A stretch of DNA of 64,000 nucleotides, taken from positions 1-64,000 of the IMG/VR virus record IMGVR_UViG_3300020156_000004; one strand, written 5' to 3'. This DNA is from a virus. Below, piece by piece: positions 36,633 through 55,660 of this stretch. The notes under the pieces are model-generated. The model did no database searches, was not told the DNA's origin, and saw only the letters and a list, made by a program, of their open reading frames with translations. Within the stretch, counting starts at the first letter, position 1; each line of letters opens with the position of its first letter. The position numbers were made by a program, and so were the translations under genes.

Positions 36633-38042
36633 ATGGAAAAATTTGAATTTGACCACGAGTTTCAAGAGGTAATTTTACAATACACGGTAACGGATAGGCG
36701 GGGTTATAAGGCCCTTCAATTATATAAGGACACCTACTTCGACTTAATGACCCATGCTGCTGTAGCCTTTGCCTTAAGGAAATATTACAAGAAACACAAG
36801 AGAGTGCCTGACAAACCTTTTCTCAAGGAATTTGTCAGGCATCTTTATCAGAGCCTGTCAAGCTTTCAGAAGTTTACCAAGGATGAAAAGAAAGAGATCA
36901 ATGAGCTCATAGAAAGAATCTACTCAGGGCCTACTCAGGGTGGGGATGAGATCATGGATAAGGTTAGGAAGTTCGCACAGTTTGTAAACTTTAAATCAAA
37001 GCTCGAAACCATAGATGTCCTGGACTATGATAGTTATGACAAGGCAGTAAATGAATTGAAGGCCGCATTAAATATTGGGCGGGAGAGTGAAACCGAATAT
37101 GGTACATTCGTAATTGATGGTATAAAGGATAGAGCTCATAAGAGAGATTTATATAGGCAGATATATGAGACTCCATTTAAACAATTAAACCATCTATTGA
37201 ATGGTGGAGGATTAACCCCACATGCCTTGGTGATGCTGATAGGTGAGGCTAAGAGATTTAAGACGGGATTCCTTTTGAACCTTTGCAAATATTATATGCG
37301 AAGGAAAAAGAAGATCATCTACTTCGACTATGAAAATGCCGAGGAAGCCCTAACCATAAGATCAGAACAATCAATCATAGGGGCCACACAAGATGATATT
37401 GCTGCGGGTGTATTGGATGATAGGCTCCTAAAGTTATTCAGGAAATACAAAAGACTCGGGGCTGAATTGGTTATCAAGAGACTCCCGGCATACACAACCT
37501 CTACTGCGGACTGTCAGGCATATATAGATATGCTAAGAACCGATAAAGGAATTACCTTTGATATTGCCATCTTCGATTACCCAGATATCATGGCCTCCAT
37601 GTCAGGGGAGAAAGAAGAAACCAAAAGAATATCTGAGGTATACCTGGATATAAAAAATTTCCTTGCATACAATAAGATGGAATGTGGTTGGGTTCCATCA
37701 CATACTAAGGCAACACCCCAGGCTCAGAAACATCGAGCAACCCGATATACTCAATATGATATTGCCAAAGCGATAGATAAGATAAGGCACGTTGACCTTG
37801 CGTTAGGCCTACAGGAATCACCCGAAGAAATAGATGCTAACATATTGAGGCTGGAGGTTGTAGAGGTGCGTAATGGTAAGAAAGGAAAAGCCCTATTCTG
37901 GATTGAATGGGATAAACAACGAACCCGTGAATTTGCTAAGGCCGAGATAAAAGATTATAACGATCAGTTCAGAATATCATACGACGAAGAACACGAACAC
38001 AGAGAACCCCCTAAACGAAAACCCAAGAAGGACGATTTGTAA
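36633..38042 (+). CDS. DnaB-like replicative helicase
   Basis: Walker A-like LIGEAKRFKTG and Walker B-like IAIFDYPDIM in a RecA-type C-terminal domain. It sits adjacent to the primase gene. Confidence 0.7.
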   Translation: MEKFEFDHEFQEVILQYTVTDRRGYKALQLYKDTYFDLMTHAAVAFALRKYYKKHKRVPDKPFLKEFVRHLYQSLSSFQKFTKDEKKEINELIERIYSGPTQGGDEIMDKVRKFAQFVNFKSKLETIDVLDYDSYDKAVNELKAALNIGRESETEYGTFVIDGIKDRAHKRDLYRQIYETPFKQLNHLLNGGGLTPHALVMLIGEAKRFKTGFLLNLCKYYMRRKKKIIYFDYENAEEALTIRSEQSIIGATQDDIAAGVLDDRLLKLFRKYKRLGAELVIKRLPAYTTSTADCQAYIDMLRTDKGITFDIAIFDYPDIMASMSGEKEETKRISEVYLDIKNFLAYNKMECGWVPSHTKATPQAQKHRATRYTQYDIAKAIDKIRHVDLALGLQESPEEIDANILRLEVVEVRNGKKGKALFWIEWDKQRTREFAKAEIKDYNDQFRISYDEEHEHREPPKRKPKKDDL

Positions 38043-39049
38043 TGAGGCAATTTAATAAATCCATACAATCAAAACTCTTTAATTACTTTACCCAAAAAAT
38101 CAGGCTCAAACCCTCTACCAAAGGATGGTACCGGGGAGATTGCATATACTGTGATGGTAAATATTCTATGGGTGTACACTTTCATGAAACCCGATTAAAA
38201 TGTTTTAAATGCGGTATAAAGGTAACTGCATTTGAGGCTATCATGGAATTAGAGAACCTGGACAATATTAATCAGGTCAAATCCCTACTGAGCCTTAAGG
38301 ACGACTTTGAACAATTTGAAAGGATAAACCGAATAGAGCCAAGGGATGTTAAACCCATTGCTCTACCCGATGATTACCACTCTATCCTGACTGGGACAAA
38401 TATATTTGCAAAGGGAGCCAGGAATTATTTAAAGAATCGAGGCTTCGATGTAGAAGAATTAGGTATGAGGGGAGTTGGATATTGTGATGATGGCCCATAT
38501 CAAGGTTATATTATCTTCCCCTTTTACAAGAAGGGGGAGTTGGTTTTTTTCCAGGGTAGATATTTTATACCCATAGGACCCAAGATGAAGAACCCACCCG
38601 AAGAAGAATTTGGTATAGGTAAGACCCAGGTAATGTATAATGAGGATGCTCTGTTTATGTATAGGAAGATCAGGGTAGTTGAATCCATAACCAATAGCCT
38701 TACCCTTGGAGACACCTCCATTGCAACCCTAGGAAAAGCTATATCCTCATGGCAATACAATATGATTTTGAAAAGCCCGGTAGAGAGAATCCATATCCTA
38801 CTTGACCCTGATGCCTATATGGAAGCATTGGAATTTGCTATGTCTATCGTCCATTATAAGAAGGTAAAGGTAATCAAATTACCAGAGGATAAGGATGTTA
38901 ATGACATAGGTAAGGGGTCTACTATTATGATAGAGAAGGAAACTCCATATCAAAATTACCAGGACCTTTTCAGAATAAGATTAAACCTAAAAAATGAGGG
39001 ACCCAAGCATTCACCTAACGGAATCAGATTTAATTCTAGTTTTGAATGA
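38042..39049 (+). CDS. DNA primase (zinc finger plus TOPRIM)
   Basis: CIYCDGKYSMGVHFHETRLKCFKCG forms a CxxC...CxxC zinc finger. TOPRIM-like residues are the Glu in VVESITN and the DxD in LLDPDAY. Confidence 0.8.
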   Translation: MRQFNKSIQSKLFNYFTQKIRLKPSTKGWYRGDCIYCDGKYSMGVHFHETRLKCFKCGIKVTAFEAIMELENLDNINQVKSLLSLKDDFEQFERINRIEPRDVKPIALPDDYHSILTGTNIFAKGARNYLKNRGFDVEELGMRGVGYCDDGPYQGYIIFPFYKKGELVFFQGRYFIPIGPKMKNPPEEEFGIGKTQVMYNEDALFMYRKIRVVESITNSLTLGDTSIATLGKAISSWQYNMILKSPVERIHILLDPDAYMEALEFAMSIVHYKKVKVIKLPEDKDVNDIGKGSTIMIEKETPYQNYQDLFRIRLNLKNEGPKHSPNGIRFNSSFE

Positions 39050-39845
39050 AGCATTTAAAGGAATTTCCCCTATTAAATGGAATCAAGAGAAACTTGCGAA
39101 GAAAATCGTTGCCCTGAGCAAAAGAAAATCTCGTCCGAACAGGATGATATATGTTAGCAATGATAAATTGCAAAGAACCGCAACCAAGATAGTTAAAACC
39201 GGTATATCAGAGACCGAACTATTCTCACAGATACTTACCTATGAGAGAAAGAGGATGAGGCACAGAGGTATAAGGGTTTCAAAGATAGGAGACCCCGATT
39301 GGTTACAGGTTAAAGAGGCAGCATCCTTAGCCGCAGACTTCTGCAATGAATTTGAACTCGAAAAGAAAGAAGGCTTCATTGAGTATGTTAGACAGGGTCT
39401 ATCCATGATGAAGAATTACTCCATACAGAAATTTAAAACCCTACACGGACCCATCTGCAAAAAATATGAGTGCATCCAAGAACTCCAACTTGACCCCACC
39501 CCCCATAAGACCGAAGAGATGTTTACCCTATACTACAACACGGTCAATGAGAAGGCAGGATTCTGCCCCAACTACAAAGAACAACCCGAAAAATATATAG
39601 GATTCAAAAGAGCAGTCGATACTGCCAAAGAACTCAATACATCAATCAAACTATATTTGAGAGCCCAATTCTATTCCCTTGAATGGGCATCAGGAATCCC
39701 GGACCCGTTAAGCTTATATGGAAACCTTGCCAAGGAGAGAGTAACCAAGTATGCCTTTGAAAATGGAATAAAGATAAGGGAAGAAAAGAAGGTAAACCTC
39801 AAAAAAATTAGGAGGGTTAAATATGATAAGGATTCTGATAGATAA
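38994..39845 (+). CDS. hypothetical protein
   Basis: 283 aa ORF that overlaps the primase gene by 56 nt, so its start is uncertain. No motif recognised. Confidence 0.45.
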   Translation: MRDPSIHLTESDLILVLNEAFKGISPIKWNQEKLAKKIVALSKRKSRPNRMIYVSNDKLQRTATKIVKTGISETELFSQILTYERKRMRHRGIRVSKIGDPDWLQVKEAASLAADFCNEFELEKKEGFIEYVRQGLSMMKNYSIQKFKTLHGPICKKYECIQELQLDPTPHKTEEMFTLYYNTVNEKAGFCPNYKEQPEKYIGFKRAVDTAKELNTSIKLYLRAQFYSLEWASGIPDPLSLYGNLAKERVTKYAFENGIKIREEKKVNLKKIRRVKYDKDSDR

Positions 39846-41286
39846 CAACAAGAGCCGAATATTGGGTGATCGTATTCTGGTAGAGGAACTGGCAGATAGA
39901 ACCAAGGTCCGGGTAAAGAATGCATGGTTCGCAATGAGAAATGGTTGGGATGGATTCGTAAGATATGTGAGTACCGAAACCGGAAGTTTCTCTACCGGAT
40001 TATTACCCATGATATTAGACATTCTTAAAAAGGAAAAAATATCCTATGAGCTTGAGGATAAGAGGGCACCCTTTAAGGACATGCACGAGGTAACTAAGGT
40101 AGGAGATCTTACCCTGAGAGATTATCAACAGGCAGCTCTCCATGCGGTATTGAATAACAAGGTAAAGGGGTTTAGATTCCAGAGAGGAATCCTACATGAG
40201 GCCACCAATGCAGGGAAGAACCTGATTGCTGCTGCGATATTCCAGAGCTTCTCAAAGAAACGAAAGGGCCTCTTCCTAATAGATGAAAAGGAAATATTCG
40301 ATCAGGCTGTGGAAGAATTAACAGAGCTTATGGGAGACGAGGTCGGGTATATATCCTCAAAGAAAACCATGATAAGGAGAATCAATGTCTGCATGATTCC
40401 TACTCTGAACTCCCGAATATCCAGAGACCCCAAATTAAAGGCCCTATTAGCCCAACAGGATATAGTTATATATGATGAGGTAGATAAATCTGCAAACGGT
40501 AGGGGTAAAAGAATATTGGGCTTCTGTTATAATGCAACCGTTAGAATAGGATTATCTGGAACCCCATTCATGAGTAAGGATAAGGTAGCAAATCAAAACC
40601 TCCTTGCCTACTTCGGTCCGGTCCTTCATAAGATGAGCAATAGGGAAATGGTCGCTGAAGATCATTCCACTGAACCGGATATAAGATTCTATATGGGTAA
40701 CAAACTTAGGATTGATGACTACCAAGAGGAATACCAAAAGGGAATCATTGATAATAAGGCCAGGCATAAGAAGATATGGAAGCTGGTAATGAAATTTAAA
40801 AGGCACATGCCCTGTCTAATAATGTTTAAAAACCATGCTCATGGCAGAAACCTACTCAAAGCTTGCCCTGAACAAATCCGGGAAACTTATAAGGTTGAGA
40901 TGGTACATGGTCAGACCCCTAACCGCAAACAAATTCTGGCAGATTTTAAAGAGGGTAGGATTGATATACTTATTTGTTCAATGATCGTCCGTAGGGGTAA
41001 GAACATAAAGAAAACCCGGATGATGATTAATGCAGCAGGTGGAGATTCAGTTGCCAATGTACTTCAACTCCTAGGCAGGTTATTAAGAAAGGACGATGAT
41101 AAGAAAAAGGTAATGTTCCTAGACTTCTATGATTATGGAGAGTACCTTCAAAGGCATTCAAAACATAGGTTGATTGCCTTGAAGAATGAGAAGTTTGAGG
41201 TTCCAGTTAAGGAATTATATAAGGGTAAATTAAAGACTATAATTAAATATGAAAGAGAAAAGAGAACCCAGAAAAGACCTCGTTAA
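39823..41286 (+). CDS. superfamily 2 DEAD/DEAH-like helicase
   Basis: Motif I ATNAGKN, motif II IYDEVDK, motif III LSGTPF and motif VI-like VRRGKNIKK. Confidence 0.8.
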   Translation: MIRILIDNNKSRILGDRILVEELADRTKVRVKNAWFAMRNGWDGFVRYVSTETGSFSTGLLPMILDILKKEKISYELEDKRAPFKDMHEVTKVGDLTLRDYQQAALHAVLNNKVKGFRFQRGILHEATNAGKNLIAAAIFQSFSKKRKGLFLIDEKEIFDQAVEELTELMGDEVGYISSKKTMIRRINVCMIPTLNSRISRDPKLKALLAQQDIVIYDEVDKSANGRGKRILGFCYNATVRIGLSGTPFMSKDKVANQNLLAYFGPVLHKMSNREMVAEDHSTEPDIRFYMGNKLRIDDYQEEYQKGIIDNKARHKKIWKLVMKFKRHMPCLIMFKNHAHGRNLLKACPEQIRETYKVEMVHGQTPNRKQILADFKEGRIDILICSMIVRRGKNIKKTRMMINAAGGDSVANVLQLLGRLLRKDDDKKKVMFLDFYDYGEYLQRHSKHRLIALKNEKFEVPVKELYKGKLKTIIKYEREKRTQKRPR

Positions 41287-41731
41287 AAAGGTAGATATGT
41301 TTGCACCTCTTAACATTGAGATATTGGGTAGTGCAAATGACCCTTGCTTCGGAAAGTTATTTAACCCGGGGGCAGAGGAATGCCAGAGATGTGGGGATTC
41401 AGAAATCTGCTCAGCGGTAATGGGACAAGCAAGTCATATCCAAAGAGCCCAGATCGAAAGCAAAAGCAATTTCAAAGACCTTGAGGAAGATAAGATACCG
41501 GACCTGGATAAGGCAGAAATGAAGAAGAAGATTAAATCGAGGTTCAGGGAGGTAATCAAATTATCACCCAAAGGAATATCCGAAGAAAGATTAATTGCTG
41601 ATGTGCATGCCACCTTCTCTACCCAAGGATTTTCAAAACCCAAACTAAAAAAGATATTGGATGCTTTAACCTCCAAGACCAATAAATTTACCTTCAACCC
41701 TAAAACCCAAATCTATTCATGGAAAAGATGA
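41249..41731 (+). CDS. hypothetical Cys-cluster protein
   Basis: It contains CFGKLFNPGAEECQRCGDSEIC. A non-overlapping start at 41297 (MFAPLN) is more likely. Confidence 0.45.
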   Translation: MKEKREPRKDLVKKVDMFAPLNIEILGSANDPCFGKLFNPGAEECQRCGDSEICSAVMGQASHIQRAQIESKSNFKDLEEDKIPDLDKAEMKKKIKSRFREVIKLSPKGISEERLIADVHATFSTQGFSKPKLKKILDALTSKTNKFTFNPKTQIYSWKR

Positions 41732-42477
41732 TGCAGCTCCAGAAAGAACTTCTGGAGCATTACATTCGTATAGAGGGTATGCCTATGTACCCTGTAGACC
41801 CCACCTCAAAGGAAGGCAGAGCTCTTTTGAGGGACTTTGCTTATAGGATAACCGATGAATTGGTAGAGGCATCAAATCACATTGCTGCCATCTACGAAAG
41901 CCTTGCATCCAACCAACAGATGCAAGCCCGTCAGGAACTCAGACATTTTAATGAAGAGCTCGGAGATTGGTGGCACTTCCTTTTGGAGTTCATTGTATTT
42001 GCGGATATAAATGAAAGCCAACTAGAGGGCCTAGTATACCAAGCTGCCCAGGAAGAAATCGGAGGCTTTGAGTATGAGGAATCAGAATGCCACCTGGATA
42101 ATATGTTTGCGATTGCCGATCTAGTATGCCTTAGAGCCGGTCTAAGAGAGGATAGGAGAAACAAATTTAATATAGGTAAGGCAAACCTAGAGGATTGGGG
42201 AGCTGCAACATTAGGACCCCGAACCATTGAGTTATTCTATATGGGTTCATGGAATGCCACAGAAAATCTATTCAAGGCTATTCATGATCTTAAACATAAG
42301 CCCTGGGCTCAGACAGATACCAAGGCAAACCTCGCCGGATTCCTTTCACATACCGGAAGATTCTTTCTTTCGGTAATGCAACTCATGGTAATAATAGGAA
42401 AGACCCCTATGAGTATTAAGGAATCCTATTTCCTAACAAACAAGAAGAACCAAAACCGTATAAAATCAGGCTATTAA
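41719..42477 (+). CDS. all-alpha NTP pyrophosphohydrolase (dimeric dUTPase/dCTPase family)
   Basis: Acidic helix motifs ITDELVEAS and FNEELGDWWHFLLEF, a KHKPW motif, and a C-terminal NKKNQNRIKSGY resembling the N..R...GY end of dimeric dUTPases. Confidence 0.6.
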   Translation: MEKMMQLQKELLEHYIRIEGMPMYPVDPTSKEGRALLRDFAYRITDELVEASNHIAAIYESLASNQQMQARQELRHFNEELGDWWHFLLEFIVFADINESQLEGLVYQAAQEEIGGFEYEESECHLDNMFAIADLVCLRAGLREDRRNKFNIGKANLEDWGAATLGPRTIELFYMGSWNATENLFKAIHDLKHKPWAQTDTKANLAGFLSHTGRFFLSVMQLMVIIGKTPMSIKESYFLTNKKNQNRIKSGY

Positions 42478-42478
42478 T

Positions 42479-43576
42479 ATGAAACATCCTACACCAAGTG
42501 TTTTCCATTTCAAAGACATGACCGATGCATGGCACGGTATGCATGATTATATGTTTAACAACGAAAAGACCATAAGGGAGCGGGGTGGAAACATCTATGG
42601 GTCTGAGTTGGTTACATTGGATAATGTAATATACATAGACAAGGCAACCATCGACCCGGAATTTAACTTCGGAAAGATTCTGGGTTACAAGATGAAGAAA
42701 TGGAGTAAGCTAATTAACAACTACCTAAACTTCAATTACCTTGACCCCATCAAGCATGAGGTAATAGAAAGGGAAATCAAAAGGGGTAACAGTTACAATT
42801 TCGTTTACCGATTCGATAACTCCCATGGCTCAGGCAAAGACTGCCTTATATCCCTTACATTCTCTAAAAGGAAAGGAGATAGAGAACCCACTCTGATCTT
42901 CACATCAAGAGCCTCGGAATGGACCAAGAGGGTAGCCTTTGATTTCCTATTGATTCAAAGGATTGCTGAGTATGTATATGGGGACCGTGATGTTAAACTG
43001 ATATGTTGGTTACCCTTCATCTTCATGAACCTCGAATGTTCACTAATGTATGTAGCAGAATATGGCAAAAAGGTTATCAAAAAAGACAGCGAGGGTAACT
43101 ATAGCCCTTTCCAAGCAAGGCTCGTCAAGAAATTCAAACTCTACCAGGAGATTGATACCGAAACAATCAAGTACAAGGTTCATCAGCGAGCCGCTATGCA
43201 GGTTCAAAGAGACAAGAAAACCGGAAGACCTATCGCTAATTGCCCAGATCTCTTTGCAAAAGAAATGGACCTCTACTCCTCAAACAAATACTCCCGCACC
43301 GACCTTCCGGGAGCTGTGTCGGATGGTAGTCGAGCTGGAAGACCGCCAAAGGATGATTCAGTTACAGGCCTCCAGGTATACAAGGAGATTAAGAAAACTA
43401 TTATCAAGGCCAAGGATGATAAGAAAAAATTACAAAACGCTATGGTGGCTCTGGGAGCCAAGAACGATTACTTCTGGCCGAAGGAATGGGACACTATTGC
43501 CTTCAAAAGAATTTGCAGAGCAGGAAATGAAAGATGGCATAAGAAAGCCTTAAAACTTATAACCAAGTATATCTAA
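42479..43576 (+). CDS. divergent thymidylate-synthase-fold-like protein with a roughly 150 aa C-terminal extension
   Basis: Counting from Cys in GKDCLISLTF, Arg is at +22, Glu at +25, Phe at +32 and Asp at +33. This mirrors the canonical TS spacing (R+20, D+23, F+30, N+31) if a 2-aa insertion is allowed. The similarity is remote and was judged by eye. Confidence 0.35.
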   Translation: MKHPTPSVFHFKDMTDAWHGMHDYMFNNEKTIRERGGNIYGSELVTLDNVIYIDKATIDPEFNFGKILGYKMKKWSKLINNYLNFNYLDPIKHEVIEREIKRGNSYNFVYRFDNSHGSGKDCLISLTFSKRKGDREPTLIFTSRASEWTKRVAFDFLLIQRIAEYVYGDRDVKLICWLPFIFMNLECSLMYVAEYGKKVIKKDSEGNYSPFQARLVKKFKLYQEIDTETIKYKVHQRAAMQVQRDKKTGRPIANCPDLFAKEMDLYSSNKYSRTDLPGAVSDGSRAGRPPKDDSVTGLQVYKEIKKTIIKAKDDKKKLQNAMVALGAKNDYFWPKEWDTIAFKRICRAGNERWHKKALKLITKYI

Positions 43577-43588
43577 TAATAAAACACC

Positions 43589-44386
43589 ATGATATTCAGA
43601 AGTTTCAGAGGGGCTATTGAATGGGCCTTTCAAGATTTAAAGGTGCAGGGTCAACCGATCAGGATTACGAATTGGCAGGGTATGTCTATCAATGAGGAAA
43701 TGATAGAAACCTATAATCTTAACCTCGAAGTTATGCACATACCCACCAATTTGATTGACCTTCAAAACCAAATCCAACCCGACCTTCCCTGGGCAGATAA
43801 CCATTTTGAGGAAAGGGTATCAAGGAAACCCCTTAACCCGGGTAATGAATACCGTAATTGGAAATTCTTTAGGAACAATGCCGAAGATGAAAAATTCCGT
43901 AAAGAGGGTGGGAAATTCTCACATACCTATATGGAAAGATACTGGCCTAAGAGGGCTGGGCATAGGGAGTTAGTTACCTCAGGAGGAACTTTTTTCGGTA
44001 TAAGATATGATTATGGAGACCTTGATGATGTGATTAACCTATTACTCGATGAACCCTATACAAGGCAAGCATATCTCCCGGTATGGTTCCCCGAAGATAC
44101 GGGGGCCGTATCAAAACAAAGAGTACCCTGCACCTTAGGTTATCTACTCTATTACAGGCAAGAGAAGCTACACATAACCTATTATATTAGAGCCTGTGAT
44201 GCCTTTAAACATTTCAGGAATGATATATACCTGACGGTAAGATTGCTTCAATGGGTTCTTAATGAACTCTGTATGAGGCAAAGTCATGAATCGAAAATAG
44301 ATTGGCATAATGTAAAGTTAGGTACCTTCAACATGGTCATTGCTAATTTCCATGTATTCAAAAAAGAAATAAACCTTTTAAAATGA
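43589..44386 (+). CDS. thymidylate synthase family enzyme, dCMP hydroxymethylase-like (Asp at the specificity position)
   Basis: DEPYTRQAYLPVWFP aligns with NDPDSRRIIVSAWN. There is a catalytic-Cys strand RVPCTLGYLLYY and a gapless alignment from Cys (R+20, C+22, D+23). Position +31 is Asp (FRND), as in T4 gp42 (FRNDY as I recall it), not the Asn of ThyA. Confidence 0.7.
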   Translation: MIFRSFRGAIEWAFQDLKVQGQPIRITNWQGMSINEEMIETYNLNLEVMHIPTNLIDLQNQIQPDLPWADNHFEERVSRKPLNPGNEYRNWKFFRNNAEDEKFRKEGGKFSHTYMERYWPKRAGHRELVTSGGTFFGIRYDYGDLDDVINLLLDEPYTRQAYLPVWFPEDTGAVSKQRVPCTLGYLLYYRQEKLHITYYIRACDAFKHFRNDIYLTVRLLQWVLNELCMRQSHESKIDWHNVKLGTFNMVIANFHVFKKEINLLK

Positions 44387-44811
44387 GGCCCTCAAGAGAC
44401 TCTATAAACCTAGAGATATGCCGGACGATTGCCAAACGATCTGATTGTAGGCGAGGTAAAGTTGGATGCGTTATAACCAAGTCAGGGAGGATTGTGAGCA
44501 CTGGGTATAATGGAACCATCGGAGAAATCAAATGCGAGGCGGTATGTAATGTACTTAGTGCTTGCCAACATGCTGCTCATGCCGAAGCAAATGCTATATG
44601 GTCGGCGGCAAAAGAGGGTATATCTATATTCGGGGCCACCCTGTATTGCACTACATGCCCCTGCTATGAATGTGCAAAAGCTATTGTGCAAGTGGGTATA
44701 TTAAAGGTAATATATATTGAAGAATATAGAGATACTCGGGGCAAACTATTCCTTATAGATAATGGGATAATCGTTAAAAAATACCTAAGTGATGAGCAAG
44801 AGCAGGCTTAA
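44383..44811 (+). CDS. dCMP deaminase
   Basis: Zinc motifs HAEANAI and CTTCPCYEC (HAE ... PCxxC). Confidence 0.9.
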   Translation: MRPSRDSINLEICRTIAKRSDCRRGKVGCVITKSGRIVSTGYNGTIGEIKCEAVCNVLSACQHAAHAEANAIWSAAKEGISIFGATLYCTTCPCYECAKAIVQVGILKVIYIEEYRDTRGKLFLIDNGIIVKKYLSDEQEQA

Positions 44812-46975
44812 GATTGTCAAGAATAAAAAGATACTTCGGGACCTAATAGCTTATTGTAAACAAACTAAATATTGTTCCTTTGACTTTGAAACCTCAGATA
44901 CCGAATACATCAACCCGGATAGTTACCCTCTCTGCCTCGGAGTTTCATTTCAACCGGGAATCAGCTATGTTATACCCCTCGCACACAAAGATTCCCCGAT
45001 TAAGAAGAAAAACCGCTGGTTATACTATCTACGAAAATTTGGAAGAGAGGTACTCGCTGATGCTTCGATTGTTAAAGTCGCTTGGAACCTCAAATTTGAA
45101 TACAACTGGTGCCTCCGATACAACATTCGACTTAGAGGAAGATTATTTGATGGTATGCTTGCAAAGTATTGCCTTGATGAGGAAAGGCCCCATGATCTTA
45201 AATCTCAGGTGGATAGGTTCTTTCCCGAATTTTCGGGTTATGAAGGGTGGAGCGAAGGAATCAAATGGGTAGATAAACCTCTGGATGGTTTGATGAAATA
45301 TTGCGGTATAGATTCTGATTTAACATTAAGGTTAATGCTTTACTTTGAACCCAAGCTAATCAAGCTGGGGTTCTATCCTTTATTTAGAAACCTACTCATG
45401 ACCTCTCTGCGGGTATTAGCGGAGTCAGAATACCGGGGAGCCTTGATAGATGAGAATTACCTAAGAGACCTTGTTGAAACCTATAGGAAGAAGATAGAGG
45501 AATCGGATAGAAAACTAAGGAGCATACCTGAGGTCGTCAAGTTTGAATCAAGGAAAGTAATTGCACTCAGGAAGCAGATGATAGAGGATGTGAGACTAGA
45601 GATTGCCGCTATCGAACGGGAGGATGCCTCCAATGATAGGGAGGAACGATCAAAACTAACTCGAATAAAAAACCGGGAAAAGAAGATCACCAATATAATG
45701 GCAGGGGTTTACAACAAAAAGGAATCTGAGAAATTAGGCCCCATCAATTTCGGTTCACCTACCCAATTAATAGACTTCCTATTCAAAAAGAAATATGGGT
45801 TAAGATTACCCGTATCAAAATATACCCAGGATAAAAAGACGAAACAAGAAACAGACACCCCCTCCACGGCTGAAGATGTATTGGAAGAACTCAAGAAAAA
45901 GGATAAGACCGGATTCATGGAACAACTCCTGGCTCATAGAGGATTAACCAAATTAAACTCAACGTATGTCGAAGGAATGCTCAAGAACCTCGATAGATAT
46001 GGCCGAGTACACACTTCTTTCTTTCTACATGGGACTGTTACTGGCCGATTATCTTCAAGAGAACCAAACTTACAAAACATACCAAGGGACACAACAGCCT
46101 CCGATATTAAACGGATGTTCATACCTCCGCCAGGTTACCTTCTTCTTGAGGTCGATTACTCCCAGGCAGAATTGCGAGTAGTGGCAGAGATGGCAGAGGA
46201 TGAGGTAATGATAGACATTTTCAAGAAGAACTTTAATATACACGTTGCCACTGCATGCCTTGTTAACTTTGGAAACCTAAAGAAATATGACAAGATTAAA
46301 GAGATCATCAAAGACGTTACCCATCCGAAAAATATACACTGGGAGAAAGAAAAGAAAAAGGGTAAGACAGTTAATTTTGGAATCCTCTACGGACAAGGGG
46401 CTCCAGCATTGGCAGAAGGTCTCGGTATACCCGTTGAAGAAGCGGAAGAATTTATCAAGGGATGGTTGGATAACTACCCTGGAGTTAAAAAATGGATGCG
46501 AAACCAAATTAGGTTCTGTGAGGAGCACGAGTATGTCAAAAATATGTTTGGTAGGAAAAGAAGGCTCCCTGATATTAATTCGGAATACAAGGGATTCAAA
46601 AAGAAGGCTGAAAGGGATTGTATCAATGCCCCAATCCAGGGAACCGCTTCAGATTTTGCCCTGCTCTCCCAAGTTATTATTCGGCATGAGATTATGAAAG
46701 GTAACCTACCAGTAGATATGCAGCAGGTCTATACGGTACATGATTCAATAGGATATTACATCAGAGCCTCCGATATTCATTGGGTAATTCCTAAGATTAT
46801 TAAGATATGTGCTAACCCAGACACCAAGAAGTATTTTGGATTCGAGTTAAAGCATGTATGGATGAAGGTATCTCCCGAAGTGGGTAAACATTGGGGTGAA
46901 CTCAGAGAATACGATGAAAAAGTAAATTACAAAATATGGCAGAAAGAATTGAACAAATCAATGTTAGCAGCCTAA
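44789..46975 (+). CDS. family A DNA polymerase with 3'-5' exonuclease domain
   Basis: Exo I motif DFETS, then RLSSREPNLQNIP, motif A DYSQAELRV, motif B KTVNFGILYG and motif C VHDS. Confidence 0.95.
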   Translation: MMSKSRLKIVKNKKILRDLIAYCKQTKYCSFDFETSDTEYINPDSYPLCLGVSFQPGISYVIPLAHKDSPIKKKNRWLYYLRKFGREVLADASIVKVAWNLKFEYNWCLRYNIRLRGRLFDGMLAKYCLDEERPHDLKSQVDRFFPEFSGYEGWSEGIKWVDKPLDGLMKYCGIDSDLTLRLMLYFEPKLIKLGFYPLFRNLLMTSLRVLAESEYRGALIDENYLRDLVETYRKKIEESDRKLRSIPEVVKFESRKVIALRKQMIEDVRLEIAAIEREDASNDREERSKLTRIKNREKKITNIMAGVYNKKESEKLGPINFGSPTQLIDFLFKKKYGLRLPVSKYTQDKKTKQETDTPSTAEDVLEELKKKDKTGFMEQLLAHRGLTKLNSTYVEGMLKNLDRYGRVHTSFFLHGTVTGRLSSREPNLQNIPRDTTASDIKRMFIPPPGYLLLEVDYSQAELRVVAEMAEDEVMIDIFKKNFNIHVATACLVNFGNLKKYDKIKEIIKDVTHPKNIHWEKEKKKGKTVNFGILYGQGAPALAEGLGIPVEEAEEFIKGWLDNYPGVKKWMRNQIRFCEEHEYVKNMFGRKRRLPDINSEYKGFKKKAERDCINAPIQGTASDFALLSQVIIRHEIMKGNLPVDMQQVYTVHDSIGYYIRASDIHWVIPKIIKICANPDTKKYFGFELKHVWMKVSPEVGKHWGELREYDEKVNYKIWQKELNKSMLAA

Positions 46976-47004
46976 AATTTATTAATAACCTAAAATAAAC
47001 CGTT

Positions 47005-47688
47005 ATGAAAATTGTACTTGCCGGTTCATCGGGTGCAGGTAAATCAACTCTGGCCAGATGGATTTCTGAAAATTACGATCTACCCTATAAGGAGAACTCC
47101 GCTGGGATGATTATGCTACCTTCCGATAAGGAGAACTTAAGGATAAGATATGGGTACAATGGGGATTTAGGACAAGAAGGAGTCCTGAAACTTTGTCAAA
47201 AAGACCCCGGCTTTGGATTAGCATTTCAATTAGCCGTATTGAAAGCCCGAGAAGCCCTGGCGGAAAGGGAAAAATTTATATACGACAGATCAGCCTTAGA
47301 CCCAGCCGTATTCTTCCTTCATCAGGTAGGTGAGAATTGGAATGAAGAAACCAATGTTCAGGTACTCCATGAATGTGCAAAGGTATTATCGAGGTATGAT
47401 TTGATAATCTACCTACCCTTAATATCCATTGACCGGGAGTTCCATAACATACAAATTGAAAGGGAAGCTAATGGAGGGAGATTTGCCCATAAGTTTTTCC
47501 AATGGAAAATAGATCAATTATTCCTGAGTACATATAAATTATTAGTACACATGAATATAATGTATGGTTGGCATCTTCCAATGCCCCCACTATCTGAAAT
47601 AAGATTTTGGAATTGGCATATAAGAACCAGTCAAGCCGCGGGTCTTATCGAGCGGTTAAAAAATAAAATACCTCAAGGGACTATCTAA
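47005..47688 (+). CDS. P-loop deoxynucleoside/deoxynucleotide kinase-like protein
   Basis: P-loop GSSGAGKST. YDRSALDPAVFF resembles the ERS...D..F motif of the dNK/dNMP kinase fold. Confidence 0.55.
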   Translation: MKIVLAGSSGAGKSTLARWISENYDLPYKENSAGMIMLPSDKENLRIRYGYNGDLGQEGVLKLCQKDPGFGLAFQLAVLKAREALAEREKFIYDRSALDPAVFFLHQVGENWNEETNVQVLHECAKVLSRYDLIIYLPLISIDREFHNIQIEREANGGRFAHKFFQWKIDQLFLSTYKLLVHMNIMYGWHLPMPPLSEIRFWNWHIRTSQAAGLIERLKNKIPQGTI

Positions 47689-48477: not shown

Positions 48478-49200
48478 ATGGCTAAATTAAGCATGAAAGA
48501 AAGGTTGCTAGAGAAGCAACGTAAGTTAAGAGAAAAACGAGGCGGGCTATGGAGAACCATTAAAGAGGGAACTCTAAGAGCAAGGCCCCTTCCGATCAAA
48601 GAAGGCCAAGAATTTTCATTCGAGGTATTCATTATCTGGGCCAACAAGGATATAATGTTTATCTCACCCTCATCCATTGGTGAGAAATGCGCTTGGAAAG
48701 AAAAGTATGATGAGTTGATGGCCTCATCTGATGAGGCTGAGAGGAAGTTTGCCAAGAGCAAAATGTATATGCGGAAGAAATCATTGATGCCACACCTATT
48801 CTATTCTGACCCTAAAGGAAAGATCGAAGATGGTACCGGATTACTACTGCTCTCACCCAATCAAACCGCAGAACTTATTGATCTATGGATGGATGATGAG
48901 GCTGGAGATTTCACTGACCCGATTCACGGTTATGATATTAAGTATAAGAGGGTAGGCTCAGGCAAGATGGACACCGAATATACCCAGAGTCGATGCAATC
49001 CAACCAAATTACCAAAGGAACACAGGGAACCCATAGACCTTGAAAAAATGATTCGGGATATGATACCTTCCTATAAACAAACCAAGAAATATGTAGAACA
49101 ATTCTTGGCTCTGGGTATGGAGACCGATGAGGATGAGGATGAAACAAGAAGCTCAAAGAAAAAGGACAAGAAGAAGAAAAAGAAATCCAGAGACCTCTAA
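48478..49200 (+). CDS. putative single-stranded DNA-binding protein
   Basis: 240 aa ORF with an acidic C-terminal tract METDEDEDE followed by a K-run. It lies directly upstream of the RecA-like gene. The call rests on position and composition only. Confidence 0.35.
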   Translation: MAKLSMKERLLEKQRKLREKRGGLWRTIKEGTLRARPLPIKEGQEFSFEVFIIWANKDIMFISPSSIGEKCAWKEKYDELMASSDEAERKFAKSKMYMRKKSLMPHLFYSDPKGKIEDGTGLLLLSPNQTAELIDLWMDDEAGDFTDPIHGYDIKYKRVGSGKMDTEYTQSRCNPTKLPKEHREPIDLEKMIRDMIPSYKQTKKYVEQFLALGMETDEDEDETRSSKKKDKKKKKKSRDL

Positions 49201-49227
49201 TTTACTCACCCCTAATCATAAATAATC

Positions 49228-50355
49228 ATGGCAAAAAAATCAGGCGATAAGATTCTAAGCCCAGCGGAAATGAAAAGGAAATTCCCTTCTTCCGGCAAGG
49301 CTTCTGAAATCTACCTCGATGCTGATTCTTCTCTATGGTTGCCCTCAAGAATACTAGCCTTCAATCACATGATTGGAGGCGGTATTCCGTATGGGAAAAT
49401 CATGGACCTGCACGGTGAGGAATCGGCAGGTAAGAGTTTATTATCTACGGACTTTGCATACACTACTCAGGCTTTGGGGGGTAAGGTATTATGGATAGAT
49501 GCCGAGGCAGCATTTGATCCGGCCTGGGTTTCTAATCAGGGAGTTGACCCAGATAAGATAGAGATACTGAAGGATGAGAACATGCTCGAGGTAATATCCG
49601 ATTGGATTAAGTATCAGGTTCTTTATTGGAGGTCTAAGTTAGTTAACAATGAGCCCATCCTCATCATTCTTGATTCGATTGCTAATACTGATACCCGTGA
49701 TAACCTAGAAACAGATTCACAGGATAAGAAAGCCGAGATGGGTAAGAGAGCCTCCAAGGTATATGAATTACTCCGGGCAAGGAGTACATACATATCCAAA
49801 TACGGGGCCATCATGATTGGTATTAATCAATTAAGACAGAAGGTCGGAGCAGGAATGTTTGAGGACCCAGATACGGTACCAGGTGGACAGGCAATGAAAT
49901 TCTATGCTTCCCAAAGAATAGGGCTTTATAGGGGTAAGATGGTTAAGGATAAGGATAAGAACCCCGTGGGAAATGTAACTTATATGAGGACCAAGAAGAA
50001 CAAGGTAGCACCACCCAAAAAGAATATCAAGGGTGAGTTCTATTATGAGACTTACAATGGTATGTTAGGTTATAATAAATACCTGGGTTTCTTACCCATC
50101 CTATTGGAAAAGGGAATCGTTGAGAGAAAGGCTGGAAAGATATACTATAAGGGTGAGTTACTTTGCTCCTACAAAGAGGAAGATGAAATGCCCTTCATTA
50201 GGATGATCTTGAAGAAGGAAAAACTCCGAGCTAACCTGATTAGAAAGTCAGGTATTAATTCGGTATCAAAAATGAAGGAAAAATTAGGCTCTATAAAAAA
50301 GAACCTATATCCAGTAAAAGTTAAATCTAAAGACGATGGCCAGGACGACGAATAA
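49228..50355 (+). CDS. RecA/UvsX-family recombinase
   Basis: Walker A HGEESAGKS, Walker B ILIILDSIAN, and GINQLRQKVG in the L1/L2 region. Confidence 0.85.
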   Translation: MAKKSGDKILSPAEMKRKFPSSGKASEIYLDADSSLWLPSRILAFNHMIGGGIPYGKIMDLHGEESAGKSLLSTDFAYTTQALGGKVLWIDAEAAFDPAWVSNQGVDPDKIEILKDENMLEVISDWIKYQVLYWRSKLVNNEPILIILDSIANTDTRDNLETDSQDKKAEMGKRASKVYELLRARSTYISKYGAIMIGINQLRQKVGAGMFEDPDTVPGGQAMKFYASQRIGLYRGKMVKDKDKNPVGNVTYMRTKKNKVAPPKKNIKGEFYYETYNGMLGYNKYLGFLPILLEKGIVERKAGKIYYKGELLCSYKEEDEMPFIRMILKKEKLRANLIRKSGINSVSKMKEKLGSIKKNLYPVKVKSKDDGQDDE

Positions 50356-51274
50356 TGTACCAGAAAATGACCCCCCAGTATTCGTATTCGATGGTATGAA
50401 TCTGGCTCACACTGCTTTCCATGCCTATCAAAAACTTACCTTCAAAAAGAAATCAGTATCTATGATCTATGGAGTGCCCGAAATTATCCGGGCATTCCTT
50501 CAAAGATATAACCCCCAAAGGGTAGTGGTAGTATGGGATGGAGATATGCACCCTGAAAGATTGCATCTGCTTCCTACCTATAAATCGCACAGAAGAAAGA
50601 ACCAGGACCCTAAGGCCAGAAGCCGATTCATCAAACAGATAATGAAGGTAAGAAAGATACTTTATGCCTTAGGAATACCTCAGGTTTGGAATAAGGATAT
50701 TGAAGGGGATGATATGATGTACCTGGTAGTTCAAAGGCTTAAGAAGTCAATGGATAATTGTAAGATCAGGGTGGTATCGGGTGATAAGGATATGCTTCAG
50801 ATGGTTGATGATAGAGTATGGGTAGAGGCACCAAGGATTGATTCAGCCATAAATACAGTAGCCTTATTCAAAGCCCATACCTCATTGAACTTCCCTAAGC
50901 AACACATTGATTACCTATGCCTGGTGGGTGATGATTCAGATGATATACCTGGTTACCTAGGAATAGGACCGGTTAAGGCTAGAGAATTTTTGGATAAATG
51001 GGGTTCAATAGAGAAGTTTCTAGCGAAGAAGTCTAATATCCATAGAGGAATCAAAAGGAAAAGACTTCGCAGACTATGGAAGCGGAATCGAACCCTCATA
51101 GACCTTGAATACTTCTGCAAGAAACAAAAATATACTGCGGAAGATATTACCTATTACCGGGATAAGAGAGAACCCCTATTCAATGAAGAAAGATTCATTA
51201 CCCTATGCAAAAGATATGGCATGAATAAATTTCAAATGCCTTCATTCCAAGCACCATTTAAAAAATTAACCTAA
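50336..51274 (+). CDS. 5'-3' exonuclease / flap endonuclease (T4 RNase H-like)
   Basis: Acidic clusters VVWDGD, EGDDMM and SGDKDMLQ, plus an H3TH region LVGDDSDDIPGYLGIGPVKA. Confidence 0.9.
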   Translation: MARTTNNVPENDPPVFVFDGMNLAHTAFHAYQKLTFKKKSVSMIYGVPEIIRAFLQRYNPQRVVVVWDGDMHPERLHLLPTYKSHRRKNQDPKARSRFIKQIMKVRKILYALGIPQVWNKDIEGDDMMYLVVQRLKKSMDNCKIRVVSGDKDMLQMVDDRVWVEAPRIDSAINTVALFKAHTSLNFPKQHIDYLCLVGDDSDDIPGYLGIGPVKAREFLDKWGSIEKFLAKKSNIHRGIKRKRLRRLWKRNRTLIDLEYFCKKQKYTAEDITYYRDKREPLFNEERFITLCKRYGMNKFQMPSFQAPFKKLT

Positions 51275-51531
51275 TGGACACTTTACCATCCTATTCAATC
51301 ACCGCAAAAAAAGCAAGCAAAATGGCTAAGACCGCATCAGCCCTAAAAACCGAAAGCAATAACAAAAACATTTACGTTGCTATTCTGGCAGCCGCATCAT
51401 TGGGTAGAAAATTCTGCCTCATTCATTTCACAGTCAGTGGCCCTCAAAGGAAAGAGTTAGAGTTCCTGGGCTTCCAACTGGAGGCTTTGATAGGTGCAGA
51501 TGGAGCAGCTCTTAAAATTTCATGGCAATGA
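51274..51531 (+). CDS. hypothetical protein
   Basis: 85 aa ORF whose ends overlap the neighbouring genes. Confidence 0.4.
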   Translation: MDTLPSYSITAKKASKMAKTASALKTESNNKNIYVAILAAASLGRKFCLIHFTVSGPQRKELEFLGFQLEALIGADGAALKISWQ

Positions 51532-52499
51532 GTAAAATAGTTGCAATAGCCTTTTCTGATATTCATATCCATAATTTCAGGGCCTTCAATGATGGTAATT
51601 ATAACAGATTACAGGAGTCATTGAGGGCCCTGTATGAAATCGGGAAATTTGCTATAAAAAAGAATGTACCCCTTTTATTTACCGGTGATCTTATCCATGC
51701 ACCTAAGGAGATAGAGAACCCTACAATGACAGGACTTTTGGTAGTTTTAAAAAAACTATTCAAACACAAAAATTTCCGGTTAATCGCCATAAGTGGTAAT
51801 CACGATTTTTTTACTAGGAATACCCCACATGAAAGTAGCCCCTCTTACCTTGATGGCCTTTCTAAGGTATTCAAGAGATTCTATCATTTGAATAACTCTT
51901 GGTATTACGGCCCCGAGGAGAAGAGGGTATGTGTATATGGAATCCCTTATTATGACAATGATAAACATACCCAAGAAGCCATAAGGAAAGTAAACCCCGA
52001 TGATAGGCATTTTAATATCCTTATGCTACACTCCGATTTTCCTGGGGCTAAAACTCCTGAGGGAACTAAGGTTGGGGAAGTAGAGCAGATAAGTGCCAAA
52101 ATGCTCAAAAGATGGGATTTGGTGATTATGGGCCATATCCATATGCCTCAAAGACTTGCAAAGAATGTTTGGATGCTGGGACCTCCCATCCATCAAGACA
52201 GATCATCTATTGGGCAAAGATTCGGATTCTGGGTAATATACGATAATGGTGAAATGGTCTTTAGATGCCTGAATGATGAGTTTCCTTGTTTTATACCCGA
52301 GGGAAAGAAAGCCAAGGAAATTGATTACATTGTACCCAAAGAGGAAGATGCCCAGCTTACTGAGCAGGAGGCTGAAGATAAAACATTTCATGTGGCAGCA
52401 TCTTCCGATAAACTAACCAAAAGATACCTAAGGAAAAAAGGCATAAAGAGCAAGAAGAAAAGAAGAGCCCTTATAAAAATATTAAACGAAGTCAGGTAA
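51522..52499 (+). CDS. Mre11/SbcD-family nuclease (T4 gp47-like)
   Basis: Phosphoesterase motifs SDIHIH, GDLIH, GNHD, MLHSD and GHIH. Confidence 0.9.
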   Translation: MAMSKIVAIAFSDIHIHNFRAFNDGNYNRLQESLRALYEIGKFAIKKNVPLLFTGDLIHAPKEIENPTMTGLLVVLKKLFKHKNFRLIAISGNHDFFTRNTPHESSPSYLDGLSKVFKRFYHLNNSWYYGPEEKRVCVYGIPYYDNDKHTQEAIRKVNPDDRHFNILMLHSDFPGAKTPEGTKVGEVEQISAKMLKRWDLVIMGHIHMPQRLAKNVWMLGPPIHQDRSSIGQRFGFWVIYDNGEMVFRCLNDEFPCFIPEGKKAKEIDYIVPKEEDAQLTEQEAEDKTFHVAASSDKLTKRYLRKKGIKSKKKRRALIKILNEVR

Positions 52500-54373: not shown

Positions 54374-54438
54374 GAATCCACTCGTAGACTTGAAAAGCAC
54401 CGGGACTATACTATCATATACCCCCAAACCCAAGATCA

Positions 54439-54960
54439 ATGAACTCCAGAAGTAAAGGGAATCGAAACGAACGTAAAGCCGCAGAGCTAATAAGTGTCTG
54501 GACAGGAAAGAAATTCGCCAAGACCCCTTCTTCTGGTGGTTTACAATGGAAGAAGTCGTTTTCCAAGGGTGATATAGTATGCACCGTTGAAGGCCACTTC
54601 TTTCCTTTTTGTGTAGAGGTCAAAGCCCATAAGGAAATAGACTTCTCACACCTACTCCTGAAAGAAATTAAACAACCCAAAATATTTGAATTTTGGGAAC
54701 AATGCGAAAGGGATGCGAAATTAGCCGAGAAGGTACCCATGCTCATGATGAGATATGATAGGTTACCTGCTGACTTTTTCTTTCTTGCATTACCAACTCA
54801 CTTCGTCCTTCAACTCAACCTCAAGTTCACAAAGGTATTGAGGTTTAGGGGTAAACATAACATCATAATTGTAGATTCAAGGGAGCTATTTGCCATGGAC
54901 TACAATGAGATTAAACCCCTAACCAAAAAATACCTTAAAAATGCCAAAAAAAGGAGATAG
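54439..54960 (+). CDS. PD-(D/E)xK nuclease, Holliday-junction-resolvase-like
   Basis: SKGNRNERKAAELI ... GDIVC ... VEVKAHKE fits the KG..E / D / ExK pattern of Hjc-type resolvases. Confidence 0.55.
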   Translation: MNSRSKGNRNERKAAELISVWTGKKFAKTPSSGGLQWKKSFSKGDIVCTVEGHFFPFCVEVKAHKEIDFSHLLLKEIKQPKIFEFWEQCERDAKLAEKVPMLMMRYDRLPADFFFLALPTHFVLQLNLKFTKVLRFRGKHNIIIVDSRELFAMDYNEIKPLTKKYLKNAKKRR

Positions 54961-55660
54961 GTACTTCTGCTGGCTCATTGCCTACATCGACTCCGACACA
55001 GTACACCTTGTTAAGAGAGAATTAAAAAGATACCTTGAATATAAGGAAGTAGAGGTATTCATTCCTACGGTAAAGGTACTCACCAAGACTTTCAAAGGTG
55101 AAGATAAATTTGATGAGGTACCCCTACTATTTCAATATGGCTTCTTTAAGGTGCCCAGGAAATTTGCAGTATCAGAAATTTACCTGGAGAACATGAAGAA
55201 TAATATTACTTGCATCTTCGGCTGGCTTAAAGACCCGCATAAGGTAATTGATGGGGAGCAAAACACCCGAAAGAAAAACATCCCTGACTCCGCTATACCC
55301 ATTGCCACAGCTACTTCAAGAGAGGTGGCCCAGCTGGTTAAAAAGGCTTTTGATTATTCTATTCATTCTTCGGAAGATATAGGGAGTATTAAACCCGGAG
55401 ACTACATAACACTCCGAGGGTACCCCTTTGACAACATGCAGGCTGAGATCATGGAGATTGATGCTGTGAAGAAGAAGGCTAAGGTAAAGATACACATACT
55501 GCATGGAGATAGGCCGGTAGATGTATCTTTCGATAATATCTTCTTTACCGTATACCAATCATACGACGACTCCCTGAGCAATGTTGATTCGCTCGACGAA
55601 TTGATGGCTAATAGAAAATCAAAACTCTTTAAAAAATTACCCGATGCGGGCACTGAATAA
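54941..55660 (+). CDS. NusG-like transcription elongation/antitermination factor (NGN plus KOW)
   Basis: NGN-like WLIAYIDSDTVHLVKRELKR...EVFIPTVKV...VPLLFQYGFFKVP and KOW-like IKPGDYITLRGYPFDNMQAEIMEID. Confidence 0.6.
   Translation: MPKKGDRYFCWLIAYIDSDTVHLVKRELKRYLEYKEVEVFIPTVKVLTKTFKGEDKFDEVPLLFQYGFFKVPRKFAVSEIYLENMKNNITCIFGWLKDPHKVIDGEQNTRKKNIPDSAIPIATATSREVAQLVKKAFDYSIHSSEDIGSIKPGDYITLRGYPFDNMQAEIMEIDAVKKKAKVKIHILHGDRPVDVSFDNIFFTVYQSYDDSLSNVDSLDELMANRKSKLFKKLPDAGTE

Follow-up and report, generated by a model that had tools for sequence, protein, structure and literature searches.

The question raised by the 64,000-nucleotide stretch of viral DNA analyzed here (IMG/VR record IMGVR_UViG_3300020156_000004, positions 1 to 64,000; hereafter, the window) is whether a cassette of six adjoining genes would enable the phage to build a modified cytosine into its genome and, if so, to what extent. 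The initial annotation, made from the sequence alone, had interpreted those genes as a T4-style cassette that predicts non-canonical cytosine in the virion DNA. After following up that proposal through family searches, structure prediction, comparisons of gene order, and palindrome counts, we consider that the best explanation is a pre-replicative dCMP-modifying operon, through which 5-methyl- or 5-hydroxymethyl-dCTP would replace some, possibly not all, of the dCTP; to this explanation we assign a probability of somewhat under one half (about 0.45).

The cassette and its two thymidylate-synthase-fold proteins

The six open reading frames (ORFs), designated p1 to p6, are co-oriented on the plus strand between positions 41719 and 47688, which limits are those drawn in the initial annotation (Table 1). 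The ORFs are packed tightly or overlap (42477/42479, 44383/44386, 44789/44811), and the operon is translationally coupled. Because two related metagenomic phages, as well as cultured or deposited phages of four bacterial genera, have the same order of genes, the arrangement is not a matter of chance. When the nucleotide sequence of the cassette was compared with the phage collection, only short fragments of thymidylate synthase (TS) genes were returned. All six enzyme identities originally proposed were borne out by family matches and motifs and, for p2 and p6, by AlphaFold2 (AF2) models and Foldseek searches.

Evidence for cytosine as the substrate comes from p3, which protein is recognized as a TS homolog by Pfam (Thymidylat_synt, 25.1 bits against a cut-off of 24.3), by PHROG (thymidylate synthase, 1e-27), and by several NCBIfam TS models—the best match among these being the model of a short archaeal thymidylate synthase—and which has more than 4,000 relatives in the databases. 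The hallmarks of the superfamily are present as the nucleophile C181, as R201 at the place of the phosphate-binding Arg166, and as the acidic D204 at position 169; T182 occupies the H147 position, and R178 that of L143. At the position of E. coli N177 p3 has D212, which correspondence was obtained in three independent alignments, one by phmmer against the L. casei TS and two by MAFFT with E. coli ThyA, T4 gp42, M6 gp58, and PaMx74 ThyA. The top PDB match of p3 by phmmer was the N229D mutant of the L. casei TS, and the p3 motif HFRNDI resembles the GFRNDY of T4 gp42, while M6 gp58, a dUMP hydroxymethyltransferase homolog, has Asn at that specificity position. Mutagenesis of TS and the T4 dCMP hydroxymethylase, together with residue association in MetaGPA, has connected Asp177 with dCMP as the substrate (PMC8670742, PMC13326640). 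A residue census covered the 116 scorable relatives closest to p3 in the databases: in every one, position 177 was Asp, the L143 position was Arg, and position 147 was Thr or Ser, while position 169 was Asp in 114 and Glu in the other 2. Since Asp stands at N177 and Thr at H147, and since that Asp is found in 116/116 relatives, p3 is not an ordinary dUMP-methylating thymidylate synthase, and on the basis of these residues we predict that p3 acts on dCMP. Moreover, p3 ends 8 residues past F257 (the H255 motif), the median for the relatives being 9 residues after the H207 motif, and lacks the TS C-terminal segment of ~55 residues that follows H207-Y209 and closes over the folate.

With respect to the product of p3, an acidic residue at the L143 position has been associated with hydroxymethylation, and the D169N substitution with flavin-dependent 5-hydroxylation (PMC13326640). 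We rejected p3 as a canonical ThyA, for D212 and T182 replace Asn177 and His147 and the C-terminal segment is missing; as an ortholog of gp42, for R178 rather than Asp or Glu is at the L143 position and the identity with gp42 is only ~18%, which is at variance with the published signature of T4-type hydroxymethylases; as a 5-hydroxy-dCMP synthase, for D204 takes the place of the D169N substitution; and as a dUMP hydroxymethylase, for the specificity position carries Asp instead of Asn. To judge from its sequence, p3 might add a methyl, a hydroxymethyl, or some other group.

The neighboring p2 had been described as an extra, very divergent TS-fold enzyme, which description proved correct in that this protein is recognizable by predicted structure only. 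No family matches were obtained in Pfam, NCBIfam, or the PDB sequences; BLASTP against p3 and against the PMBT14 neighbor gave nothing significant; a profile search of the PDB sequences yielded noise only; and the relationship to TS surfaced solely through the hhalign register, AF2, and Foldseek. The AF2 model (48 homologs, pLDDT 83) retrieved from the PDB TS-fold structures exclusively, the leading matches being cytosine-specific: the MilA CMP hydroxymethylase (2.6e-5), the HY126 dCMP hydroxylase AfhB (9iqu, TMt 0.56), and the T4 dCMP hydroxymethylase. From BFVD the same model returned two uncharacterized gut-virome proteins and then a hypothetical protein of PMBT14 (E 2e-8), whose gene sits between those for the pyrophosphatase and the TS. 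An hhalign comparison of the p2 and p3 families, albeit weak (E 0.5), placed C122, R144, E147, and D155 of p2 onto C181, R201, D204, and D212 of p3, and the R-x10-D spacing from R144 to D155 equals that between R166 and N177 in TS. In that register, with the same spacing and within a TS-fold model, C122, R144, and E147 correspond to the defining residues of the superfamily, E147 being present rather than the diagnostic D169N of the 5-hydroxy-dCMP synthases. When we aligned seven p2-type proteins—those of the window phage, a related metagenomic phage, PMBT14, Serbin, Polewnik, and Gibbous, plus an unannotated ORF of MW202777—Y40, Y82, R98, C122, R144, D155, and F182 were invariant at identities of 15–18%. 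On these grounds, p2 looks like a catalytically competent TS-superfamily enzyme with a cytosine-type Asp.

Residues ~270–365 of p2 form a Lys-rich, low-confidence helical C-terminal extension of ~90 residues, which feature is common only to its closest relative, P0122; most members of the family are ~285 aa long.

The other proteins of the cassette would supply the remaining steps. The nucleoside-triphosphate (NTP) pyrophosphatase p1 fell just below the cut-off of Pfam dUTPase_2 (E 2.4e-4, 21.8 bits against 22.9), matched the PHROG NTP pyrophosphohydrolase at 4e-12, and found no matches in the PDB by phmmer. Over its final 37 residues p1 can be aligned with the C-terminal end of the T4 gp56 dCTPase (E 6e-4), with the pattern ...KN..R...GY; its metal motifs ExxE and ExxD (E47/E50, E80/D83) are kept in the relatives; its ortholog in the related contig L016 matches dUTPase_2; and the Serbin counterpart is annotated as pfam08761. 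By these sequence features p1 probably belongs to the T4 gp56 dCTPase family, which probable membership counts in favor of a cytosine-modifying operon.

The deaminase p4 scored 77.9 bits with Pfam dCMP_cyt_deam_1 (cut-off 25; E 6e-22), 7e-15 with MafB19-deam, and 2e-45 with the PHROG dCMP deaminase; it contains the zinc motifs of the family, HAE (in HAEANA) and PCxxC (in CPCYEC), and is 33% identical to the cd protein of PaMx74. A natural fusion, the NCBI-sourced P0068 (409 aa, from an 18.9-kb contig), joins an N-terminal p3-type TS homolog to a C-terminal dCMP-deaminase domain, which union suggests a functional coupling of the TS-type and deaminase activities. In the PMBT14 'dCMP deaminase' of 319 aa, the deaminase domain comprises residues ~178–289 only, and the N-terminal ~170 residues have no Pfam match.

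The polymerase p5 matched Pfam DNA_pol_A at 302 bits (7e-90) and DNA_pol_A_exo1 at 2e-13. By sequence, only AAA_28 passed its threshold with p6 (31 bits), and a word-indexed homolog search returned p6 alone; an exhaustive HMMER search found 217 remote homologs, and among 50 relatives scanned AAA_28 was matched by all 50, dNK by 31, and Cytidylate_kin by 14. The AF2 model of p6 (pLDDT 92.8) gave as top Foldseek matches deoxyadenosine kinase, dCK, YorR, and thymidylate kinases, and the features of a dNK/TMPK-type kinase are there, all invariant: the P-loop GSSGAGKST, DRS94-96, and the lid residue R159. Neither p6 nor the kinases of the related cassettes matched Pfam HMUDK_HMUD1, the model of the 5-hydroxymethyl-deoxyuridine (5-hmdU) DNA kinase, which model M6 gp54 does match, at 65 bits.

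On this basis we propose that p1 would hydrolyze dCTP and/or dUTP to the monophosphates, and that p3, probably with its partner p2, would transfer a one-carbon unit from methylene-tetrahydrofolate to the C5 of dCMP; p6 would then phosphorylate the p3 product, a host NDP kinase would complete the triphosphate, and the phage PolA would put that modified triphosphate into DNA. In parallel, p4 may deaminate part of the pool of (modified) dC nucleotides toward the thymidine side, as in the Xp12-type phages. The outcome would be 5-methyl- or 5-hydroxymethyl-cytosine in place of some, possibly not all, of the virion cytosine. In this scheme the folds, the active-site residues, and the conserved gene order are observed, while the substrates, the products, the degree of replacement, and any part played by p2 are inferred.

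Conservation of the cassette and likeness to published systems

A p2-type gene lies immediately upstream of a p3-type gene in 8/8 loci, often with overlapping stop and start codons; that pair adjoins a pyrophosphatase and a PolA gene in all eight and a dCMP-type deaminase gene in seven, the deaminase being absent from the locus of the Brevundimonas phage. The order [kinase]-pyrophosphatase-p2-p3-deaminase-PolA is kept from siphoviruses of Actinobacteria and Proteobacteria to the gut myovirus lineage of the uncultured, ~85-kb window phage, and the cultured carriers of the pair comprise Pseudomonas PMBT14, Serratia Serbin, Gordonia Gibbous, and Brevundimonas Polewnik. MW202777 encodes ThyX beside the p2-p3 pair, and hence three pyrimidine-C5 enzymes. 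In the same genome, the p2-like TS-fold ORF located between the genes for the NTP pyrophosphatase and the 'pyrimidine hmase' is unannotated. In the literature searched we found no description of the p2-p3 pairing.

The cassette type itself has been linked statistically to modified-cytosine DNA. In the MetaGPA data, where only contigs with a gene of the dCMP-deaminase family were counted, a TS homolog is located beside that gene in 104 of 149 contigs selected as C-modified versus 17 of 277 unmodified ones; further neighbors commonly present in the modified contigs are a PRA-PH pyrophosphatase and PolA (bioRxiv 10.1101/2024.12.05.627091). In the same work, 5-methyl-dCMP (5mdCMP) was made by five of the seven TS homologs tested; the in-cis deaminase that was characterized, mSCD-B5, showed a strong preference for 5mdCTP relative to dCTP; and the authors proposed that in-cis deaminases turn 5mdCTP into dTTP, as for Xp12 and PaMx74 (bioRxiv 10.1101/2024.12.05.627091). 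As in the MetaGPA contigs (Yang et al. 2021; NEB 2024), the locus here combines, in a span of a few kb, a TS with Asp177, a dCMP_cyt_deam_1/MafB19 deaminase, a PRA-PH-type pyrophosphatase, and DNA_pol_A, which combination is the very hallmark reported; unlike a subgroup of those contigs, the one producing 5-carbamoyloxymethyl-C, the locus lacks a carbamoyltransferase. That part of the initial annotation which predicted non-canonical cytosine therefore retains statistical backing from MetaGPA, though full replacement is not indicated.

The T4-style logic of the initial annotation likewise stands in part. The cassette shares with T4 the enzymatic roles, and p3 shares with gp42 the FRND motif with its Asp, a Thr after the catalytic Cys, and a short C-terminus, while the C-terminus of p1 resembles that of gp56. 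The differences from T4, apart from those of p3 already mentioned, are that p6 has a dNK/TMPK fold, with T4 gp1 (1DEK) outside its top 50 structural matches; that the polymerase belongs to family A and not to family B; that there is neither a separate td/ThyX nor a glucosyltransferase; and that the lineage carries a C5 methyltransferase. Phages Xp12 and PaMx74, moreover, have the same parts, so that T4 is not the closest or the only template.

The system of Xanthomonas phage Xp12 and Pseudomonas phage PaMx74 replaces C with 5-methylcytosine and needs no glycosyltransferase; in PaMx74 the genes for an NTP pyrophosphatase, an Asp177 TS homolog, and a dCMP-deaminase-family protein stand in a row (PaMx74_53/52/51), and the QR(N)VPC motif ahead of the catalytic Cys is similar. 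The combination of Asp177 with an in-cis deaminase, which characterizes the 5-methyl-dCMP synthases of this type, is found here as D212 and as a p4 start that overlaps the p3 stop. In contrast, PaMx74_52 has a ThyA-like LPYD and a long TS-type C-terminus, where p3 has FRND and neither of those; p3 and PaMx74_52 are only ~18% identical, which value does not indicate a close relationship; PaMx74 encodes DHFR, the contig here does not; and a second TS-fold partner occurs only in the present system. The Xp12 logic serves no less well as a template than that of T4, and it accounts for the absence of decorating enzymes.

That absence, which the initial annotation had remarked for glycosyltransferases and other decorating enzymes, extends to the whole 84,634-bp contig, in whose precomputed Pfam matches we found no glycosyltransferase, carbamoyltransferase, TET/JBP, aGPT-Pplase, or 5-hmdU DNA kinase; no DHFR, further ThyA, or ThyX; and no pyridoxal-phosphate (PLP) or radical-SAM partner of thymine hypermodification. 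The lack of a further ThyA or ThyX counts in favor of a cytosine-modifying operon, as do the dNK/TMPK fold of p6 and the coupled, syntenic arrangement of the genes. To the 5-hydroxy-dCMP synthases (RB69 gp48, DLP3 gp80, HY126 AfhB) the system is alike in the TS fold with Asp177, and in that p2 has AfhB among its leading structural matches, and unlike in having no D169N in either protein (p3 D204, p2 E147) and in being free of arabinosyl- or glycosyltransferases.

The genome signature and the alternative readings

Several observations weigh against a cytosine-modifying operon, above all against one that would leave no cytosine unmodified. At 629 bp upstream of window position 1, the contig encodes a C5 cytosine DNA methyltransferase of 339 aa (Pfam DNA_methylase, 66 bits), whose motif IV is atypical, with SPDCG (PDC) in place of PCQ; a full-length counterpart at 34% identity is present in the gut phage MT121964, a carrier of a p2 homolog as well. 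Since a C5 methyltransferase needs an unsubstituted C5, DNA with a substituent on the C5 of every cytosine would offer such an enzyme nothing to act on. In addition, no TS homolog for which the work cited identifies a product has more than ~18% identity with p3. Finally, in the literature searched we found no nucleoside data for members of the p2-p3 clade and no base-composition experiments for PMBT14, Serbin, Tlacuache, Polewnik, Knuthellervirus, MT121960/MT121964, or modified-cytosine Bacteroides phages.

The avoidance of restriction sites points in the same direction. Against a maximal-order Markov expectation, 12 of the 62 testable 4- and 6-mer palindromes in the window had z < -3, versus 0.2% of the non-palindromic 6-mers. 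Among the 4-mers, the observed/expected counts were 152/284 for GATC, 78/149 for CTAG, and 7/23 for GCGC; among the 6-mers, 3/28 for TGATCA, 4/29 for GATATC, 2/22 for AGATCT, 2/20 for GAATTC, 2/20 for CATATG, 0/13 for ATCGAT, and 0/9 for TCTAGA. GGATCC is absent from the window, the expectation based on 5-mers being ~0, and the CpG odds ratio is 0.61. For the 6-mer palindromes as a whole, the observed/expected ratio in the window was 0.68, compared with 0.93 in T4, 0.88 in PaMx74 (5mC), 0.80 in Serbin, 0.71 in PMBT14, 0.45 in M6, 0.44 in PaMx42—a comparison genome without the p2-p3 cassette—and 0.34 in Gibbous, where, despite the same p2-p3 pair, the avoidance is extreme and the avoided sites are C-rich. 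From these ratios it follows that the p2-p3 carriers are not uniformly like phages in which every cytosine is protected, and the site avoidance, as indirect evidence, makes a complete replacement by a protective base less probable. With a conserved C5 methyltransferase and with an avoidance stronger than that of T4 or PaMx74, the full replacement of C as in T4, which the initial annotation had taken as its model, is not indicated.

Within the Serbin genome, which bears the same cassette, GATC is nearly eliminated (3 observed versus 180 expected).

The alternative that survives best, which we deem unlikely, is that of an ordinary nucleotide-supply module in a phage with canonical virion DNA, where the operon would only boost dTTP, either from dCMP to 5-methyl-dCMP by p3 and on to dTMP by p4, or from dCMP through dUMP to dTMP, with p1 in the role of dUTPase and p6 in that of thymidylate kinase. 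Restriction-site avoidance and a conserved C5 methyltransferase are to be expected of normal-cytosine DNA, and the avoidance of C-rich palindromes in Gibbous, a carrier of the pair, is no weaker than that in the cassette-free PaMx42 and the partially T-modified M6; furthermore, in deposited records the corresponding genes bear the names dUTPase, thymidylate synthase, and thymidylate kinase, and the NCBIfam model that p3 matches best is that of the short archaeal thymidylate synthase. Against such a module, however, stands the Asp for Asn177 in all the 116 relatives, which residue abolishes the normal preference for dUMP in the TS enzymes studied, and a 5mdCMP route would still provide the polymerase with 5mdCTP, as in Xp12. 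The pair in MW202777, beside ThyX, is not simply a source of dTMP, and the conserved second TS-fold enzyme would be left without explanation.

A two-step TS chemistry leading to an undescribed base, in which p3 would make a 5-substituted dCMP that p2 converts further, or in which both would form an obligate heterodimer, seems to us distinctly improbable. Such a scheme would accord with the unvarying position of the p2-like gene upstream of the p3-like one, with the invariance of the C122 nucleophile, the phosphate-binding R144, and the cytosine-type D155 at so low an identity, and with a p3 that falls outside the published residue signatures, given its Arg at L143, its retained Asp169, and its lack of the TS C-terminus. 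Nevertheless, p2 could be a regulatory or scaffolding paralog, and the genome signature gives no hint of a base with a strong protective effect. We would be equally doubtful in asserting that p2 and p3 constitute a two-enzyme or heterodimeric TS-fold system making an undescribed C5-substituted dCMP or its deaminated uracil counterpart.

The replacement of thymine by a base of the 5-hydroxymethyl-uracil type, formed from dUMP or through deamination of 5-hm-dCMP by the logic of SPO1, M6, and ViI, is highly improbable, for although the 5-hmdU pathway and the thymidine-hypermodification systems, that of PhiW-14 included, have the same generic pre-replicative parts list (a TS homolog, a dCMP deaminase, a dTTPase/dUTPase, a dNMP kinase, and a phage polymerase; PMC8989533), although 7 of 90 phage deaminases screened with T4 gp42/gp1 gave 5hmdU in DNA (bioRxiv 10.1101/2024.12.05.627091), so that some in-cis deaminases can deaminate a 5hmdC nucleotide, and although P0068 joins a p3-like domain to a deaminase and the partially T-hypermodified M6 is likewise strong in palindrome avoidance, p3 has Asp where M6 gp58—the TS-superfamily gene linked with 5-HMUDK (Lee et al. 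2018)—has Asn, the cassette has no 5-hmdU DNA kinase, and the aGPT-Pplase, PLP, and radical-SAM partners are missing from the contig.

Surroundings of the cassette and significance

Surrounding the cassette is a complete set of genes for replication and recombination (window 36633-41286 and 48478-54960), which are listed in Table 1 along with the other features of note. In the structural region an ORF of 1652 aa (1634 aa as called) has no Pfam match on record, and the ~45 small plus-strand genes that run from 54941 to the end of the window and beyond have as their sole Pfam matches one KTSC and one DUF3085. No tRNA genes were found in the window. The Bacteroidota-type signals of the initial annotation gained no significant support from our counts of promoter motifs: the full -33/-7 pattern of the Bacteroidota promoter consensus had 3 matches versus 1.05 expected, which excess is not significant, and TANNTTTG had 78 matches versus 57 expected, spread across both strands. 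In view of such weak counts, we make no claim as to the host.

Table 1. Positions of the cassette genes, of neighboring genes, and of features in related loci; positions refer to the window unless another sequence is named.
Feature	Position	Strand	Description
p1	41719-42477	+	252 aa; all-alpha NTP pyrophosphatase, probably of the dimeric dUTPase/dCTPase (dUTPase_2, T4 gp56) type
p2	42479-43576	+	365 aa; divergent TS-fold protein; core of ~residues 1-265 plus Lys-rich C-terminal extension
p2 C-terminal extension	43288-43576	+	
p3	43589-44386	+	265 aa; TS homolog, predicted dCMP substrate
p4	44383-44811	+	142 aa; dCMP/cytidine-deaminase-family zinc deaminase
p5	44789-46975	+	Family A DNA polymerase with 3'-5' exonuclease domain; gene callers' start at 44792
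p6	47005-47688	+	227 aa; P-loop nucleoside/nucleotide kinase, dNK/TMPK fold
DnaB-type helicase	36633-38042		
SNF2/ResIII helicase	39823-41286		
gp32-like single-stranded-DNA-binding protein	48478-49200		Pfam gp32 22.9 bits, below cut-off
RecA/Rad51	49228-50355		
5'-3' exonuclease	50336-51274		
Mre11-like phosphoesterase and SbcC/Rad50-like ATPase	51522-54373		
PD-(D/E)XK nuclease	54439-54960		
Long ORF of the structural region	6887-11845		
Small genes	54941-64000 and beyond	+	
C5 DNA methyltransferase	contig ena:ERZ27257314:k141_200166, 53168-54187 (locus L011, 8249-9268)		Outside the window
p2-like ORF of MW202777	locus L002, ~7109-7921		
PMBT14 'dCMP deaminase'	locus L001, 8844-9803		

The pathway class and the gene neighborhood are already published, so that the novelty assumed in the initial annotation is reduced accordingly; what is new, as far as we found in the literature, are the p3 clade, its TS-fold partner p2, and the disagreement of the gene content with the genome signature. 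Replacing pyrimidines before replication ranks among the major means by which phages evade restriction and CRISPR, and also supplies enzymes for epigenetic sequencing. In this context p3 breaks the residue rules that are now used for the prediction of products, and its partner p2, though always present, is invisible to sequence methods. The co-occurrence of 'cytosine-modifying' genes with site avoidance and a C5 methyltransferase constitutes, in turn, a warning against inferring full replacement from gene content. If the two TS-fold proteins did form a system of their own, many cultured siphoviruses that infect Pseudomonas, Serratia, Gordonia, and Brevundimonas would possess that system, and so would the gut myovirus lineage of the window phage.

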